Source: Escherichia phage ALITA. From it: 64,000 nt of DNA. The stretch lies in the sequence record PP359570; one strand, written 5' to 3'. A model generated the notes under the pieces. The model did not search any database. It was not told where the DNA came from and saw only the letters and a list, made by a program, of their open reading frames with translations. The translations under genes were made by a program, and so were the position numbers. This document shows positions 10,746-58,122 of this stretch, in pieces; the stretch's first letter is position 1; the number at the start of each line of letters is the position of its first letter.

Positions 10746-12905
10746 ATGTATCCTATTCCTTTATTTATGTCAACAACATCAGCTTCAGTAGTAACAGCTA
10801 CATCTATAACTACTTCCTCTATTGGTATTGCAATAGTTGGTGGTAAAAAACAACTGACATACACAGTTACACCCGAAGATGGTGCGTTATTTGATATAGC
10901 TTTTTCATCTTCAGATGATACCAAAATGGTTATAGATAATAGTGGTATGATGGAGTTTGTTGCCGAAGGTGGTTTTGATGCAATAATGACAGCTAAAAAT
11001 AATTTAGGTGCTGTCTTAACTGATCAATCTGGTGGTTATGCTTCAGAATTAAGTGTGTACACTGAAAGTCTATCGGCTATGGATGTAGGCACTACTCAAC
11101 AGTTGGTTGCTACAATCAGTCCAGAAGGTGCTAAAGACCTTCCAGATATGGTAATTACATACACCACAACAGATCCAGAAGTAGCTACTGTAAGCCCTAC
11201 AGGGTTAATAACTGCTCTTAAAGATGGCGGTTGCCGTATAGGTTGTACTGCAACGTATCAAGGAACAGTTGTGGCCTCTGATAGTTCTTATTTAGGTGTT
11301 AATGCTATTCCTGTTATTTCTAATGTAACAGCCGTGGCAAACAGCTATGGAGACGTTCGTGTTGCTTGGGATGTAGCTGATCCGCTAGACGGTGATACTT
11401 ATACTGTAGAAGTATTAGATTTAAGTAATAATAGTGTTCAGTGGACTACAACAACCACGAATACTTACGCCTACTTTGATATCTCTGACTCTATTCCTCT
11501 TTATGGGTTTGCTCCAACATACCTTAAAATTAGCGTTAAGAGCACCAAAGCAGCAGCCGTTATCTTTAATAACTCAATAGCTACAGATGATTCGTTCATT
11601 AAAGAAGTTATTGTCTTTGCTGGACAAGATAACGTAAATGCACACTTTACAGAACTATCTGGTGCAAATAAAGCAGCAATGGGTAGCACAACAGCCCGTA
11701 ATGCATATGCTACGCAACGTGGTTTAGCAAATGCTGAAGTTCTTCCGTTAAATACAGCTTCTGGATCATCAGCAGCAGATAAATATGCTGACGATAAAGC
11801 TGGAACAGGTACACCAGATAACTACTGGTATGATTTGGATAACACAGCAGATGGGCCATGCTTAACTAACTTTATCACTAAAGTCACACCTTATGCAAGT
11901 AAGGTTAAAGCAATTATTTGGGGACAAGGTGAAAATGATGCTGTATCAGCATCTTCGACTGTTGCAGGTAGGTACAGTAACACTACACGTTACCATGATG
12001 CTACGATAGCTATCTTTGATAAGATGCGTACAATAGTTCCTGCTTCTCAAGCAAAAATTGTTTGGCAGATCCTAGGACGTTCTTATTTATATGGTGTAGA
12101 AGTTAATGGTGTGGATTGGCAGAAGTACAGAAATGTACAAAGAACCATCTCTACAGCACGTGATGATGTTATCATTGGTTCTTGGGTAGATGGTGCTGAA
12201 CGTTACAGTGGTTATGTTTATGAAGAAGGTATTGATGGTCGTATCCATTATGTTTCTTCTGTATACCAAACAGCAGCTACAAAACTTGCTAAATCAGCAG
12301 CAGACGGTACAGACTTAACATCAACGTCACCTGTTTGGGTTGATATGGCTGTTCCAACTGGAGCAACAGCTACTTCCCAACCTAATCAAGATACAATTTT
12401 AGCATGGGATGCTCAAGGCTATAGTAAACACTACTTCCGTAATATTAACGTCTTAACCGCATCTGTATTAACTGAACAAACGCTTAATACGAACAGTTAT
12501 ACGTTTACCTATGCAGATCAAGTAGAACAATATGGTTTTGCAGCAGGAACTACTATATTTGATGTTGCATATTATGACGAAGCAAATGATGTGTTATCTC
12601 CTTTAGTACGTTTTAATGTTAACGTTACAGCAGGAACCGTAGAAGATAAACCTGTCGTGATGGACTATGATTTGACGCAAGAAACTCTTCCATCAGATGT
12701 TAAGGTTAATGGTGGGAACTCTTTTGCTCGTGCTTCTGGAGATATACTTGTAGCCACTAACACCTTGGTTGCTCCGTTGGAGTATGTTGGTAATACCCCT
12801 GTAGGTAGACGTGTAACAGCTAACACAGCTTCACAAATTTTTGTCAACAACGCCTTAACAAGTGCAAGCCCGTGGGTAAAGACCAACTTAACTGTTGCAG
12901 CTTAA
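10746..12905 (+). CDS. Tail fibre/receptor-binding protein with Ig-like (Big_2-type) domains and SGNH/sialate-O-acetylesterase-like domain
   Basis: 719 aa; SD AAGGAG; Ig-like repeats near N-terminus; esterase-like blocks FAGQDNVNAHF and WGQGENDA. Confidence 0.7.
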   Translation: MYPIPLFMSTTSASVVTATSITTSSIGIAIVGGKKQLTYTVTPEDGALFDIAFSSSDDTKMVIDNSGMMEFVAEGGFDAIMTAKNNLGAVLTDQSGGYASELSVYTESLSAMDVGTTQQLVATISPEGAKDLPDMVITYTTTDPEVATVSPTGLITALKDGGCRIGCTATYQGTVVASDSSYLGVNAIPVISNVTAVANSYGDVRVAWDVADPLDGDTYTVEVLDLSNNSVQWTTTTTNTYAYFDISDSIPLYGFAPTYLKISVKSTKAAAVIFNNSIATDDSFIKEVIVFAGQDNVNAHFTELSGANKAAMGSTTARNAYATQRGLANAEVLPLNTASGSSAADKYADDKAGTGTPDNYWYDLDNTADGPCLTNFITKVTPYASKVKAIIWGQGENDAVSASSTVAGRYSNTTRYHDATIAIFDKMRTIVPASQAKIVWQILGRSYLYGVEVNGVDWQKYRNVQRTISTARDDVIIGSWVDGAERYSGYVYEEGIDGRIHYVSSVYQTAATKLAKSAADGTDLTSTSPVWVDMAVPTGATATSQPNQDTILAWDAQGYSKHYFRNINVLTASVLTEQTLNTNSYTFTYADQVEQYGFAAGTTIFDVAYYDEANDVLSPLVRFNVNVTAGTVEDKPVVMDYDLTQETLPSDVKVNGGNSFARASGDILVATNTLVAPLEYVGNTPVGRRVTANTASQIFVNNALTSASPWVKTNLTVAA

Positions 12906-22996: not shown

Positions 22997-23971
22997 TTAA
23001 AGACTTTCAATAACTTGACGACGCAGTTCATTGGCATCTGCAAGATTATAATTAAGACGAACGTGTTCTGCAAGCATCATACCACGATCTTCTGTGTATC
23101 TAGGGTTCCTCATTAGCTTGACAACTTCATAATGCCAAGATGCTTTAGAGTCTGCATAGATAACAGCCTTTGCATCTACCGGATTGAAGTACGGCAGCAC
23201 AGGAGAACAGATAATAGGAAGACCCTTTGCACCTGCTTCCAAAATCTTCAAATTGCTTTTACAGTTGTTGAAGTCATTATCTACCAGGGGAGCAATTGCA
23301 ATACTGTGACCGTCATACACAGACATATACTCACCTAAATTTTTAATAGCTGGTTTATACTGTGCATTTGGAATCTTACGTTTTATTTTAACCCACTCCG
23401 CAGTAGTTAGATACTGACTATTATTTCCAACAGGTGCAGAAGGATACACTTCATACCCTGCAATTGTCAATAGTGTATCATCAAATGTATTAGCTACAAG
23501 AGATAAATCAGGTTCGTGGCTTGCTCCTCCAGCCCAGATAATAGGCGTGTCAGAATTACGGTCTTTTGTCAAAGTAAATTGACCTTCGTCGTAAGGTAGT
23601 GCGTTTCTAATAACGACAACATTACGATTTAAATGACGAATTTTGTAAGCTAGGTATTCTGTTGTTACAGTAACAACATCTGCTAACTTGACCATCTCTA
23701 CAATAGTCTTTGAGTGATTAGTAAATACGCCAGCCATATAATGTTCAGGATTAAGTGAATAAAAATCATCTAAATCAACAATAATCTTAACACCTTGTGC
23801 CTTCAGGCGTTTAACCTCGTCTGCTCCACGAGAATACACTCTATTAAAAACTAAAACGTCTTTCTTAGGTTTAAACGTATTTCCAGCAAATGGCATTACA
23901 ATACGATGGTAATCACAACCACTGCCTAACTTATTATCACACTTAAGTACAGGAGTATTAGGATTTACCAT
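22997..23971 (-). CDS. Glycosyltransferase (GT-B fold), paralog
   Basis: Start set at ATG with SD AGGAGG (MVNPNTPVL...); motif IAIAPLVDNDFNNCKSNLKILEAGAKGLPIICSP. Confidence 0.65.
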   Translation of the reverse strand: MVNPNTPVLKCDNKLGSGCDYHRIVMPFAGNTFKPKKDVLVFNRVYSRGADEVKRLKAQGVKIIVDLDDFYSLNPEHYMAGVFTNHSKTIVEMVKLADVVTVTTEYLAYKIRHLNRNVVVIRNALPYDEGQFTLTKDRNSDTPIIWAGGASHEPDLSLVANTFDDTLLTIAGYEVYPSAPVGNNSQYLTTAEWVKIKRKIPNAQYKPAIKNLGEYMSVYDGHSIAIAPLVDNDFNNCKSNLKILEAGAKGLPIICSPVLPYFNPVDAKAVIYADSKASWHYEVVKLMRNPRYTEDRGMMLAEHVRLNYNLADANELRRQVIESL

Positions 23972-53126: not shown

Positions 53127-54254
53127 ATGAAATACACGATTTATGGTGATATTGTAAGTGTAAATAAAGATATGGGCGTGGAATCTAACTATCTTCCACC
53201 TGGATTCTATACTGTTAGTCGTGATCCCCTTGGCAATTATTTTTTAAGCCGTGGTAATCTAACAGGTGTACCGGATGTTTTGTATGGTGAAACAGAAAAA
53301 CGAGCAAATCACGTTATCCGTACATTCCATCGCCGGAGTGCACAAGGTAAAAACACAGGCTTGCTTCTGACAGGAACTAAGGGCAGTGGTAAAACTATGT
53401 TAGCCAAACTCATTAGTCGTGACCTTGTAGAAGAAGGTATTCCAACTATTATGGTTACTCAAGCCTACAGCGATGCTAATTTCATTGAACTTATTAGCAA
53501 GATCACCGACAAAGCAGTGATTATTTTTGACGAGTTTGATAAAGTATATGAGAAGAAACAAGATCAAGAAGCACTTCTCACTTTGTTAGATGGTACTGGG
53601 AGTGGTAATAAACTGTTTATTCTAACTAAAAACAGTGGTTTTATCTCTGAATTCTTTTTAAATCGTCCTAGTCGTGTGTTTTATAATTTTAATTATGATA
53701 AAATCTCACTAGAAACTATGATTGACTATTTAGATAAAAACTTGGATAACAAAGCACACTTTGATAATTTCCAAAGGCTTTGGGATGTAAGTTTAGAGTT
53801 GTCCTTTGATGTGATCCAAGGTATAGTAGAAGAACTTAATTTCTACCCTGATTTATCCTTTAAAGAATGCATCTCTATGATGGGCGTTTCTTTGGGTGGT
53901 GGTAATAAATGGGATATCAGCAGCGTTGTTATTAATGGAAAACTTCAGAAAGTTAGCTGGGTATCTAGTTGGCATAACTTCACACCTGCAATCTTCTTAG
54001 GTGGCTCGTGCACACTAGACGTGTACTTGTCATCTCCAAGTGATGCAGACTCTAAAGAAGCCCTTGCTAATAGCTCTTACGTGGTTTTTGATGATGAAGG
54101 CGATGCTCGAATTCCATTGAATGCGACAAAAATGAAAGCAGATCTTATTACAGGCGGTAAAATCGTTGTGTTTAGTGATGATCCAGAAGATTCTTTCCGT
54201 ATTGTTCTGGAACCAACTATCACCAATGGTGCAACTTTGGCAAGCGTGTTTTAA
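53127..54254 (+). CDS. P-loop AAA-type ATPase (paralog of 36972-38132)
   Basis: 375 aa; Walker A LLTGTKGSGKT, Walker B IIFDEFDK; co-linear similarity to the minus-strand paralog. Confidence 0.75.
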   Translation: MKYTIYGDIVSVNKDMGVESNYLPPGFYTVSRDPLGNYFLSRGNLTGVPDVLYGETEKRANHVIRTFHRRSAQGKNTGLLLTGTKGSGKTMLAKLISRDLVEEGIPTIMVTQAYSDANFIELISKITDKAVIIFDEFDKVYEKKQDQEALLTLLDGTGSGNKLFILTKNSGFISEFFLNRPSRVFYNFNYDKISLETMIDYLDKNLDNKAHFDNFQRLWDVSLELSFDVIQGIVEELNFYPDLSFKECISMMGVSLGGGNKWDISSVVINGKLQKVSWVSSWHNFTPAIFLGGSCTLDVYLSSPSDADSKEALANSSYVVFDDEGDARIPLNATKMKADLITGGKIVVFSDDPEDSFRIVLEPTITNGATLASVF

Positions 54255-54328: not shown

Positions 54329-55735
54329 ATGCCAGCACCAAAATCATGGGAACAATATAAAGAAGAATTAACACCCCTTGCTAAAAATCACAACATTCAG
54401 ATTCTGGGTTATATTGGTGAATGGAAAGGGAGCAAGACTAAACTTAAGCTATCTTGCTCTGATCATGGGGAGTGGGAAAGTACCATAATCAATAGCTTTA
54501 AAACTAAAGGCGGTAAATGTTGCCCCGATTGCAATGGTCGTAGAAAAGTAACAGAAGAAAAGGAATGTATTTCCCTTGTTGATGTTGCTAAAGAAAGAGG
54601 GTTTACTTTTATAGGTCTTGCCGAAGAGTGGCGAGGTGTGCTAACAAAAATCCGCATAGTTTGCCCTAAACATGGAGAGTGGAACACCACGACCATTAGT
54701 GGTTTTAGGAAGGGACGTGGTTGTCCGGCATGTGCAAGTAATAAGCCGTTAACATGGGAAACAGAATTACCGATCTTGGAAGAGATAGCACAGAAGAAGG
54801 GGTATCAGGTGTTAGGGTACGTGGGAGAATGGAAAGGGATTGATACAAAACTTGATTTGTTGTGTCACTGTGGTAACAGATGGGATACTACAAGTATTAA
54901 CAGTTTTAAACATGATCATGGTTGTCCTTTATGTGGGTATGAGAATACAAGGAAGGCACAAACAATACCCGACGATCAACATATTGCAGATTTCTTTTCT
55001 ACAGGGAAATTTAAGGAAGGCACTATCTTTACCAATACAGGGAAACGTAGTTGTAGTAAAAACAAGGACATTATCTGGATGATCGAATGTCCTGTTTGCT
55101 CTCATGATGAGTATGTGCAAGCAGGTGTATGTGATGGTAAGTTTTATATGACACGTAGCGATCTTAAGGCTGGACACTTGCCCTGCCGCTGTGCAACTAA
55201 CTCTCATTATACAGAAAATCAGATTACCTACAGGGTAAAAAAGGAAGTAGAAGGGAGAGGGTATGTCTGGGTAGGTTGGATCGGTAAACCGTCTATAAGA
55301 CTGGGTAATTTTAAATATCTTTGTCTTGTTCATGGGGAACAAATTGGTAGTGCTTATCGCTTACTATATCAGGATAATGGTTGTCCACAATGTGCAGGTC
55401 ATAGTCAGCAGCAATTGTATGTTAATGTTGTTAAAGATAATGGTATTATAGTTGCTCTTAAGTTTGGTATATCTAAAGATAGTGCTAGGAGATTAAACAT
55501 TCAAAATAGGCGTAATATGTTTTTTATGGAGCGTATTTGTTTATATGATTTTAGTACAGTGAAGCAGTGTAAGGCTGCTGAAAGAGCTATAAAGAAAAAA
55601 TTAAAAACTGGTATCTTAACAGCAAGAGAGTTGAAAGATGGTTATACAGAAACAGTAAGTGTTTCTGATTTGGAAAATCTTCAAAAAATTATTACACAAT
55701 ATGGTGGCAAATTAGTATACAGTAAGGAGGTGTAA
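54329..55735 (+). CDS. Zinc-ribbon repeat protein with C-terminal T5orf172/GIY-YIG-like domain
   Basis: 468 aa; four or more repeats of C..HGEW...F...GCP.C; C-terminal LYVNVVKDNGIIVALKFGIS...RRL block. Confidence 0.55.
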   Translation: MPAPKSWEQYKEELTPLAKNHNIQILGYIGEWKGSKTKLKLSCSDHGEWESTIINSFKTKGGKCCPDCNGRRKVTEEKECISLVDVAKERGFTFIGLAEEWRGVLTKIRIVCPKHGEWNTTTISGFRKGRGCPACASNKPLTWETELPILEEIAQKKGYQVLGYVGEWKGIDTKLDLLCHCGNRWDTTSINSFKHDHGCPLCGYENTRKAQTIPDDQHIADFFSTGKFKEGTIFTNTGKRSCSKNKDIIWMIECPVCSHDEYVQAGVCDGKFYMTRSDLKAGHLPCRCATNSHYTENQITYRVKKEVEGRGYVWVGWIGKPSIRLGNFKYLCLVHGEQIGSAYRLLYQDNGCPQCAGHSQQQLYVNVVKDNGIIVALKFGISKDSARRLNIQNRRNMFFMERICLYDFSTVKQCKAAERAIKKKLKTGILTARELKDGYTETVSVSDLENLQKIITQYGGKLVYSKEV

Positions 55736-56287
55736 ATGCGGATTACTGATAAGTATGTGTTCTTCTTCTCGGCAAAAGATGAATTTAGCAACTGGTATCT
55801 ATCATCTTTTATTGAACCTTTAGCTCCCAAGTATAATAATTCTATTACAAGTTCTGTTGAATTTACTTGTGTGGAACAATATATGATGTGGAGAAAAGCA
55901 TGTTTGTTTTATGATTACAGTATTGCATCTTCTATTTTAACCGGAGATCTAAGATATACAGGAGAAAAAGAACAAGCATATTATAAACGACTAGGCAGAT
56001 TAGTTAAAGATTATGATGAAGATACCTGGGCTTCTTTACGGGAGAAGATTGTCAAGCGTGGTTTGTATCTTAAATACACACAAAATGAAGATCTCAAAAA
56101 TAAACTTATCGCTTACGCAGATAAGGAGTTCGTAGAGGCAAGCCCCTATGATTCTATTTATGGTATCAAAATGGGGATGTGGGATCGGGACGTGGAAAAT
56201 AAGGATTGTTGGAAAGGGCAAAATCTTTTAGGAAAATGGCATACAGACCTTGCTGTTTATCTAAAATCACAATCTGATATTTCCTGA
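55736..56287 (+). CDS. NADAR (YbiA/DUF1768)-family protein
   Basis: 183 aa; strong SD AAGGAGG; blocks FFFSAKDEFSNW, VEQYMMWRKACLF, LGRLV, FVEASPYDSIYGIKMG alignable to E. coli YbiA. Confidence 0.75.
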   Translation: MRITDKYVFFFSAKDEFSNWYLSSFIEPLAPKYNNSITSSVEFTCVEQYMMWRKACLFYDYSIASSILTGDLRYTGEKEQAYYKRLGRLVKDYDEDTWASLREKIVKRGLYLKYTQNEDLKNKLIAYADKEFVEASPYDSIYGIKMGMWDRDVENKDCWKGQNLLGKWHTDLAVYLKSQSDIS

Positions 56288-56506
56288 TATTTTGAAAATT
56301 TTTATTTTTATAAAAAGGGGTGTGGGTTTCATGTACGGAAATCCACCCTCTGAATAATATATCCAGAGTAAGTAGTATTCTGTACTCTGTTAATAAAGTA
56401 TTTAATTTGTTTGTTGGATTATGGTGGCTGATCTTTAAAAGGCATACTATCTCTTAACTACTACTTATAACAAAACAGTAAAATCCTTTTTATAAAAGTA
56501 CAAAAT

Positions 56507-56703
56507 TATTTAAAGTTTTTACAGATTTTCGGGTACAAATTTTGAAAATGAAAAGTTCAAGTTTGGTCAAAATTATTTAAAGTTTTTGTACGTATTTCTG
56601 TCCAGATTTTGAAAATGAAAACTTCAATTTTTTAAAAATTCCCCAGTTTATTTAAAGTTTTTTTGCCTTTTTCCGTAGAAAAATCAAAAATGAAAAGTTC
56701 AAT
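56507..56703. repeat. Three tandem direct repeats (~55-60 bp) in noncoding region
   Basis: Each unit starts TTATTTAAAGTTTTT and ends GAAAATGAAAAGTTCAA with a variable centre. Confidence 0.8.
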
Positions 56704-56724
56704 TTCGTGTTTTTATAGGTGTGT

Positions 56725-56841
56725 TAATGAGAATCATTTTCGTTTGTAAATGAGAATCATTATCATTTAACTATGTAAGTGATAATCATTCTCAGTAAGA
56801 GAATGAGAATCATTAGCAAATGAGAATTTTTCTCATTTACA
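56725..56841. promoter_or_regulatory. Cluster of five palindromic sites with Fur-box-like core (candidate repressor sites or origin iterons)
   Basis: AATGAGAATCATT variants; AATGAGAATCATTATCATT and GTGATAATCATTCTCAG; last copy is perfect inverted repeat AAATGAGAA-TTT-TTCTCATTT. Confidence 0.6.
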
Positions 56842-57098
56842 GAATAACGCGCAGGGGCGGTGTTTGTCTCGCGCTCCCGTGTCCCCTCGCCATACAATAA
56901 GAATAGCATAACCAATAACAAAAGCAAGCGATTATTTTTATCTTTACATTTCTTTACAAATTTATTTTAGACGAGCTACCGGCGATCAACCTTCCAACCA
57001 GTGCCCCCTGGTATGTTAGCCCCGCCTTTACGCCGTGGGGTGGCGTTTCCTCTTCTGTATGTAAAACAGTATAAGCCCGATCCCTGGGCTTGTCAAGA

Positions 57099-57365
57099 TT
57101 ATTTTTTGTTTTCTTGCCAGGATAGGACACCTAACCAAAAATACATGTCGCCCCGCGCCCCTGGTGGGATCTTGCTTTCCCCGCCGCCACTGCAAGCCCA
57201 TAAATAACCATCAGCGAACGGATCAAAGTGATCTATCTCTTCCACCTTATGATCGCCCAGGTTGAGAACGGTTTCAACCTTTAAGCCCGTTGCGCTTGCT
57301 ACCTGGTGCACCGTGCCGCCTTGCCAGCCCAGTGAGTGCATGAGATGTAAAGAAGTATTTGTCAT
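57099..57365 (-). CDS. Hypothetical protein, divergent from early array, GC-rich codon usage
   Basis: 88-aa ORF; hairpin AGCCCAGGGATCGGGCT downstream. Confidence 0.4.
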   Translation of the reverse strand: MTNTSLHLMHSLGWQGGTVHQVASATGLKVETVLNLGDHKVEEIDHFDPFADGYLWACSGGGESKIPPGARGDMYFWLGVLSWQENKK

Positions 57366-57736
57366 GGTATCGCCCTTTCTTTGTTGTGCGCCCTGGTTGG
57401 CGCGGTAGAAAGATGATAGCCGTTTCCTTCATATATAGCAAGCAAAAAAGAAATGAAAAAAAGATTAAAAAATGGTTGACGTTCCTCACCTGGTAGCGTA
57501 GTATTCATCTTGTCGAGGGGGGCAAGACACAACGACAATAAACAATAGGCGGGTGCAATGCAAGACGGGCAAAGGTGAGGATCTCCACAATCCACCGTCA
57601 CAATAACATTACTTATAAAAGGTTGATAACGATGATCAAGAAAGAAAATAGCTTGACGGTTGGAACGATTAACGCTATCATTCTTGCCGTTCCATTTTGG
57701 ATTGTAGTTGCGGTTATTATTTTCTAAAAAAATATT

Positions 57737-57764
57737 CTTGACAACGTTTTTTAATCTGATAAGA
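57737..57764 (+). promoter_or_regulatory. Sigma70-like promoter
   Basis: TTGACA-16-TAAGAT, followed by leader hairpin 57775-57794. Confidence 0.6.
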
Positions 57765-57817
57765 TGTATCACATAGGGCGGCAATAGTGCCGCTCATAAC
57801 AGAAGAGAGAAATAATC

Positions 57818-58093: not shown

Positions 58094-58122
58094 TTGACAC
58101 TGAAAAATAATTTGATAATATA
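58094..58122 (+). promoter_or_regulatory. Sigma70-like promoter
   Basis: TTGACA-17-TAATAT, leader hairpin GGCGGGGAAATGGTTTCCCGCC at 58133-58154. Confidence 0.6.

Follow-up and report, generated by a model that had tools for sequence, protein, structure and literature searches.

The window analysed here, a 64,000-nucleotide stretch of the Escherichia phage ALITA genome (sequence record PP359570), contains a non-coding region of 811 bp (56288–57098) that is bounded by a NADAR-domain gene (55736–56287) on the left and by an 88-aa minus-strand ORF on the right (Table 1). A preliminary description of this DNA had noted a gene-free stretch of about 0.8 kb, and this holds, the region bearing only short ORFs; the one of these that was scanned, at 56320–56457, had no family match. 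Most GenBank records carry no annotation within the non-coding region, two tag the repeats found there as a bare 'repeat_region', and a function is given in none. The other neighbours are a gene for a CapR/T5orf172 endonuclease and one for a Bcs1/FtsH-like AAA+ ATPase. The CapR-repeat/T5orf172 endonuclease-like gene (54329–55735, plus strand) differs in length among closely related phages, being 1173 bp in inny, 1398 bp in alia and 1407 bp in the window, and its presence upstream of the NADAR gene probably reflects insertion of a mobile element.

The left edge of the non-coding region carries two short motifs and a hairpin. Motifs of the GATATTT type, in 2–4 copies with a phase of approximately 10 bp, are found at this same edge in both subfamilies compared below, despite a different upstream gene. 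The hairpin is predicted to be a terminator or 3′ stabiliser of the upstream operon, marking the left edge of the non-coding region; a role as a terminator for minus-strand transcription was rejected, as the fold is good on the plus strand only. At the right edge, the 88-aa ORF is acidic, contains a GWQGGT motif and is conserved from phi92-like to phiTE-like phages. It matched no DNA-binding family, no other family and no solved structure. Further to the right, near-consensus sigma-70 promoters on the plus strand (57476–57504, 57653–57681, 57738–57765 and 58094–58121) lie ahead of the small-early-gene block, which extends in the direction of the genome end; promoters of this type in phAPEC8 have conserved 5′ hairpins downstream, which are annotated as 'PHIRE' motifs.

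Table 1. Features of the non-coding region and its right-hand boundary. Positions are those of the window.
Feature	Position	Strand	Description
Two TGATATTT motifs	56275–56292	+	10 bp apart; left edge of the non-coding region
Hairpin after NADAR gene	56316–56351	+	-20.1 kcal/mol, z = -3.7; minus strand -11.8 kcal/mol
Repeat unit 1	56506–56560	+	Box A 56506–56520, Box B 56540–56560, both exact
Repeat unit 2	56573–56627	+	Box A 56573–56587 (exact), Box B 56607–56627 (1 mismatch)
Unit 2/unit 3 spacer TTTTTTAAAAATTCCCCAGT	56628–56647	+	Position-specific conservation in other genera
Repeat unit 3	56648–56702	+	Box A 56648–56662 (exact), Box B 56682–56702 (4 mismatches, AATCAAAAATGAAAAGTTCAA)
Five Fur-box-like 7-1-7 palindromes (TGAGAATnATTCTCA / TGATAATnATTCTCA)	56726–56838		Directly right of the array
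nAGAAT hexamer	56840–56845	+	Abuts the last Fur box
GC-rich block	56845–57060	-	Highly conserved, far more so than neighbouring genes
Predicted sigma-70 promoter, TTGACA-17-TATACT	57068–57096	-	11/12 consensus matches; points at the array
88-aa ORF, phrog_19316	57099–57365	-	Conserved; right bound of the non-coding region

Each of the three repeat units opens with Box A (TTATTTAAAGTTTTT, 15 nt), present as exact copies on the plus strand, and closes with Box B (TTTTGAAAATGAAAAGTTCAA, 21 nt). A variable centre lies between them, and the distance from the start of Box A to the start of Box B is 34 nt in all three units. The earlier account of three repeats with common 5′ and 3′ ends around a variable centre is thus borne out by two boxes at a fixed offset. 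The coordinates it gave, 56507–56703, were in the right place but one base off (56506–56702), and its figure of 55–60 bp for the tandem units agrees with the conserved core of 55 bp but not with the repeat periods, which are 67 and 75 bp. Sub-sites fall at 0, 46, 67, 113, 142 and 188 within the array.

The array is unique in its replicon. Only one further match to Box A was found in the 64-kb window, at 22999 with 2 mismatches, and 0.03 matches to Box B per window are expected by chance. In the complete 147-kb genome of the relative BME3, Box A and Box B are confined to the array locus, this array is the top-scoring tandem repeat (TRF score 185), and a tandem-repeat scan found no other arrays. 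Nor was an origin-like array found at the divergent-transcription region at 48.5–51.8 kb of the window.

The DNA of the array is also physically distinctive. Its GC content is 23%, and by AA/TT periodicity at 11 bp it ranks within the top 0.2% of windows. In the 64-kb window no 400-bp duplex is less stable than 56447–56846, and the BME3 counterpart of this segment ranks second genome-wide for low duplex stability, the two least stable stretches of that genome being the array/Fur-box region and the terminal-repeat region. Low stability is not universal, since the corresponding region of Kashira and phiTE has 42–45% GC. The GC skew does not change sign at the array.

When the segment 56300–56900 was used as a query, 176 phage records matched, with Escherichia phage PD114 closest (99%); the phi92-like Justusliebigvirus genomes all matched at 95–99%. 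By sequence identity the window belongs to Justusliebigvirus (phi92-like). A host derivation of the DNA was rejected, there being no match in 5,426 E. coli genomes. Column counts over six genomes of the genus show that 5 of 197 columns vary in the array, compared with 26 of 218 in the left non-coding flank and 14 of 143 in the Fur-box stretch (Fisher p = 2.6e-4 when the array is compared with the left flank). All five changes in the array are in centres or spacers, which leaves the 111 box positions without variation (p = 0.015 for boxes against centres plus spacers). Variation in the array is therefore four to five times below that of the flanking non-coding DNA within the genus, and we conclude that the boxes are under purifying selection. 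The suggestion that this is an iteron-like array under selection is supported, its boxes being invariant while its flanks drift.

The repeats are neither absent from nor unconserved in related phages. All 13 genomes checked, drawn from the Stephanstirmvirinae and the Vequintavirinae, have a three-unit array at this position, and in each of them it lies directly left of the Fur boxes and in one orientation. The shared order is upstream gene, AT-rich DNA, three units, Fur-like palindromes, GC-rich block and 88-aa ORF, and the same layout is seen in Phapecoctavirus, Citrobacter phage Tr1 and the Klebsiella phages KP2025, FKP3 and phi1_175008. Position-specific conservation across genera extends to the unit 2/unit 3 spacer; the units are therefore positional orthologues, and the triplication is old. 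This bears on one possible explanation for a repeat of this kind, a recent and functionless tandem duplication in junk DNA. AT-rich intergenic DNA is indeed prone to slippage, but recent slippage is contradicted by positional orthology across genera and a conserved inter-unit spacer, by invariant boxes beside flanks four to five times more variable, and by a three-unit architecture kept across two subfamilies despite turnover of the boxes themselves. We regard this explanation as very improbable.

The turnover of the boxes is itself informative. The Vequintavirinae (Av-05, Kashira, UPEC06, phiTE and SSBI34) have three units, occasionally four, of approximately 65–78 bp at the same place, with boxes that are unrelated to the phi92-like boxes and specific to each lineage; the box types over all 13 genomes, the phi92-like one included, are TTATTTAAAGTTTTT, GTTCTCGATCGGTTTTTC, GGGTCTCGATCG, GAACTNGA..CTTTTTT and GAACTTGAGRGGTTTTTC. 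In rV5-like phages the three-unit array at this position has GATC-rich boxes, for example GTTCTCGATCGGTTTTTC ... ATCGTAT ... GCGAAAAATTTTT. Av-05, UPEC06 and the phi92-like phages have E. coli as a common host and yet differ in their boxes, which points to a putative binding protein that is probably phage-encoded and not a host factor. Lineage-specific sites are the pattern expected of a phage protein and its cognate sites, as with initiators and iterons. The 88-aa ORF was considered as the binder and rejected, its identity not tracking box type: Av-05 encodes a protein 68% identical and has other boxes, and phi1_175008 encodes one only 42% identical and has the same boxes.

The same observations weigh on the idea that the array is architectural or decoy DNA, a curved, AT-rich stretch to which nucleoid proteins of the host, H-NS for example, would bind or which would titrate a host factor, or alternatively that it is a pause signal for DNA injection as in T5. 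A GC content of 23% and phased A-tracts would suit an architectural element, and the neighbouring Fur boxes could likewise titrate. Exact boxes that are specific to lineages of phages sharing a host nevertheless argue against a host protein, and in Kashira and phiTE the homologous region is not AT-rich. A pause signal would fit the location of the array, which lies 12–14 kb (approximately 8% of the genome) in from the right end and is separated from that end by blocks of small early genes. The first-step-transfer boundary of T5 is similarly repeat-rich non-coding DNA about 8% from one end with small early genes between; however, T5 combines terminal repeats of 10 kb with a two-step injection that is well documented. 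To our knowledge, neither feature has been described for these myoviruses, so that the resemblance of the array to the T5 boundary is positional only. We consider readings of this group quite unlikely.

Whether the array acts as RNA or as DNA was addressed with the alignments. RNAalifold placed 0 pairs in the array columns and there was no Rfam hit at E <= 1, so that an RNA element was rejected. With no consensus RNA structure and no coding potential, the array therefore acts as DNA: it is a cis-acting element, and not an RNA or a gene. Scans of the boxes for sigma-70, IHF and DnaA motifs were empty, and a by-eye check against consensus sequences for sigma-32, Fis, CpxR and PhoP found nothing consistent across units or genomes. 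Taken together, these results show that the array is under selection, occurs once in the genome and consists of three bipartite sites at the level of DNA, within a conserved non-coding control module.

Repeat arrays are also found where phage genomes are packaged, and the preliminary description had raised both a packaging site and a terminal-repeat boundary. In lambda cosB and SPP1 pac, as is textbook knowledge, the sites of the terminase small subunit form repeat arrays, and the array resembles lambda cosB (R3-I1-R2-R1) and SPP1 pac in having three repeated protein sites (predicted here) at a unique non-coding locus. In addition, a few GenBank records begin near the array, for example EC.P2 at 495 and PP357458 at 87. 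These record starts are, however, scattered and not shared, and cosB and pac lie at the cutting site or genome end beside the terminase genes, whereas the array is distant from both. In Schickermooser (MK373788) an exact direct terminal repeat of 329 bp occupies the two ends of the record and the homologous region is located approximately 14 kb inward, and the published 342-bp direct terminal repeat (DTR) of BME3 lies approximately 12.4 kb from its array, which contradicts a terminal-repeat boundary or packaging site here. The records of phi92 and of many other phages end approximately 11.6 kb beyond the array. The large terminase gene of BME3 (88633–90717) is also distant, approximately 77 kb from the array (11994–12235). 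A pac or cos site, or a terminal-repeat boundary, thus has a very small chance of being correct.

Directly right of the array, the five 7-1-7 palindromes resemble binding sites of the iron regulator Fur. Of the matches in the window to the 19-bp E. coli Fur consensus GATAATGATAATCATTATC with <=3 mismatches, 3 of 4 fall within 56723–56817, where 0.03 are expected, and the cluster is conserved in all 13 genomes. The palindromes are therefore candidate Fur operators on the strength of their match to the consensus. In BME3 all 7-1-7 Fur matches (<=2 mismatches, 147 kb) lie beside the array or in or near the terminal repeats, the Fur-box positions recorded being 55, 250, 1161, 1219, 146223, 146418, 147084 and 147279, and the DTR of Schickermooser has two Fur-type boxes, at 77 and 256. 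Fur-consensus boxes are thus limited to two non-coding regions of these lytic phages and conserved across two subfamilies. In the hexamer that abuts the last box, GAAT is invariant in 8 of 8 aligned sequences; variants of the hexamer are TAGAAT (Av-05), CGGAAT (phiTE) and CAGGAT (SSBI34). It could be the -10 element of a Fur-controlled rightward promoter, or the tail of a minus-strand RNA.

Such an RNA would start at the predicted minus-strand promoter, which is oriented to the array from approximately 360 nt away and is conserved in 10 genomes, with TTGACA invariant. The spacer of this promoter is at the same time the terminator hairpin of the 88-aa ORF, with compensatory changes present. Downstream of it, the GC-rich block contains three compensatory pairs, with G-U pairs that are valid on the minus strand only; the covariation score is modestly raised (0.165 vs 0.114 in shuffles), the RNA would be G-rich (skew +0.17, with G-runs), and there is no matching Rfam family. 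The block is probably a structured non-coding RNA that is transcribed toward the Fur boxes and the array. A possible terminator hairpin before the Fur boxes has a fold that is not significant (z = -0.18).

The units themselves might instead be promoters. They could form three tandem activator-dependent or phage-specific promoters, one per unit and firing rightward, in which Box A would be an activator or UP-like site near -43 and the NAAAAT of Box B a weak -10 element. Tandem early promoters are common in phages, as in T7 A1-A3, a unit length of 67–75 bp corresponds to the footprint of RNA polymerase, NAAAAT is present in Box B of every Stephanstirmvirinae unit, and the SSBI34 units read TTGAGA-15-TAAAAT. 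Yet no unit within 56506–56702 has >=9/12 consensus matches on either strand, the position of a -35 element is not conserved, and the geometry differs by subfamily, NAAAAT abutting Box A in the Vequintavirinae. A promoter class found at one place in 147 kb would also be odd, and there is no obvious downstream gene before the antisense of the 88-aa ORF. Promoter function within the units accordingly seems improbable.

The reading that we favour is that the array serves for recognition and unwinding within an internal replication origin activated by transcription, an origin having also been among the functions raised in the preliminary description. We would give this reading a probability of roughly one in three (0.35), and in it we infer protein binding, promoter firing and initiation from the sequence. 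Each unit would offer a bipartite site, Box A and Box B being in fixed register to each other, to a DNA-binding protein that is sequence-specific. The minus-strand promoter would fire the structured G-rich RNA leftward, through the Fur boxes and into the array, which occupies the stretch of the region that melts most readily. Binding of protein at the three units would then open or mark the DNA for a start by a T7-type primase-helicase and polymerase. The annotation of BME3 includes a T7-type primase/helicase and a polymerase, without a recognisable origin-binding initiator. In the related phage rV5 the origin could not be located by skew analysis (rV5 genome paper).

Two traits of known origins are found here. 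The first is the adjacent AT-rich DNA-unwinding element of iteron origins, seen at the array in its stability rank and its 23% GC. Like the iteron arrays of lambda ori (ITN1-4), P1 oriR, T4 oriE and the plasmids RK2, F and pSC101, the array consists of direct repeats that are unique in the replicon and lie in or by easily melted DNA. The sequences of iterons likewise diverge between related replicons, as if co-evolving with a binder encoded by the replicon. The differences are in construction, iterons being 17–22-bp sites in helical phase, whereas here there are 55-bp bipartite units at 67 and 75 bp, and an adjacent rep or O gene is absent, as are DnaA and IHF sites; the likeness of the array to iterons is one of logic, not of anatomy. 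The second trait belongs to transcription-primed origins and is a promoter that, as predicted from its sequence, is aimed into the AT-rich region. This is the layout of the T7 primary origin (phi1.1A/B), T4 ori(uvsY) and ori(34), and ColE1 (RNA II), where, as here, the AT-rich DNA lies a few hundred nucleotides downstream of the promoter. The likeness extends to a predicted structured G-rich transcript between the two and to a phage that has a primase-helicase of the T7 type but lacks a recognisable initiator. The AT-rich part of such origins, however, needs no conserved repeat boxes, and here Fur boxes stand between promoter and array.

Several observations count against an origin. There is no adjoining initiator: a search of the genes next to the array did not find a cognate initiator of the Rep, O or DnaA-like kind. 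DnaA and IHF sites are not conserved, with neither DnaA (TTWTNCACA) nor IHF (WATCAANNNNTTR) sites in 12 of the 13 homologous regions and one DnaA box in Kashira. The skew lacks a sign change, and units of 55 bp with spacings of 67 and 75 bp are unlike in-phase iterons of 17–22 bp. The promoter is approximately 360 nt away with a possible terminator hairpin between, and low stability is not universal. Finally, the array is directly upstream of the Fur boxes, a position that a transcriptional role fits equally well.

One of the neighbouring genes was examined as a possible initiator. The AAA+ ATPase (53127–54254, plus strand) has weak sequence matches to Hda, DnaC and Orc; the structures nearest to its AlphaFold model (pLDDT 85) are Bcs1, FtsH and proteasomal Rpt, and on this model it is a classical-clade, unfoldase-like protein. 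It was rejected as the initiator on account of this Bcs1/FtsH/Rpt-like model and of its distribution, the matches listed being from unrelated phage groups with no Vequintavirinae among them. The family occurs widely among large lytic phages, whose hosts include Gram-positive as well as Gram-negative bacteria, and the annotation of the protein varies between replicative helicase and FtsH-like protease.

A transcriptional role is accordingly the main alternative. The units may be operators or upstream sites that bind a phage regulator and switch the flanking transcription units, the targets being the putative rightward Fur-box promoter at approximately 56840, the convergent promoter at 57096–57068, or read-through from the upstream operon. 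We hold this to be a realistic possibility, only slightly less likely than the origin element. It would account for the constant place of the array immediately left of the Fur boxes in the same orientation (13 of 13 genomes), within a region that has conserved promoter-like elements and a structured RNA; the lineage-specific boxes fit a phage-encoded regulator, the boxes are invariant and the centres variable, and the 11-bp phasing of A-tracts suggests wrapping or bending of the DNA. The early/late switch region of phi29 (multiple p4 sites and the p6 nucleoprotein complex) and the triple operators OR and OL of lambda similarly place several regulator sites, candidate ones in the case of the array, within approximately 200 bp of non-coding DNA between opposed promoters, in A/T-tract-rich, bendable DNA. 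These known operators, however, are dyads that overlap -35 and -10 elements, whereas the array consists of direct repeats far from the candidate promoters. It lies 140–340 bp from the nearest candidate -10 element (56840–56845), with five Fur boxes between, and approximately 360–550 bp from the minus-strand promoter, which is unusually far for bacterial operators. There is, moreover, no strong promoter in or directly by the array, no DNA-binding regulator was identified among the neighbouring ORFs, and the small early ORFs at 57.8–62 kb had no DNA-binding Pfam domain.

Returning to the origin reading, a more speculative extension is that array, Fur boxes and promoter-driven RNA might form a single iron-gated control region, in which host Fur would decide if a primer or regulatory RNA reaches the initiator-binding array. 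We think this improbable as a whole. If true, these lytic phages would couple their replication or early programme to the iron status of the host, and the set of Fur boxes in the terminal repeats would gate the first-entering promoters likewise. The Fur boxes in themselves hint at a connection, so far unexplored, between the iron status of the host and lytic development; searches of the literature yielded nothing on origins, transcriptomes or Fur boxes of these phages, and no description of the array. Phages of the phi92-, phAPEC8- and rV5-like groups are isolated widely and find use in therapy cocktails. The array is the most prominent repeat of the genome and a testable candidate for an origin or a master switch. 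It offers a defined DNA bait for the protein that binds it, and genome engineers should avoid disrupting the region.

Some observations concern the records used for comparison. In the BME3 record (PP239276), Ns are present in the terminal region (145800–147371 and 1–1500), together with a duplicated segment of 861 bp that takes in the annotated DTR and has the look of an assembly artefact; four short repeats of CTATTTGTTG are also found there. A pattern scan of IMG/VR for more arrays returned mostly unrelated AT-rich contigs. Four records labelled 'Campylobacter phage' (MG065639, MG065645, MG065656 and MG065689) are approximately 97% identical to E. coli Justusliebigvirus in this region and are probably contaminants or have mis-assigned hosts. 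Acinetobacter ABPW7 and Pseudomonas PsgM04F look like similar host mis-assignments.
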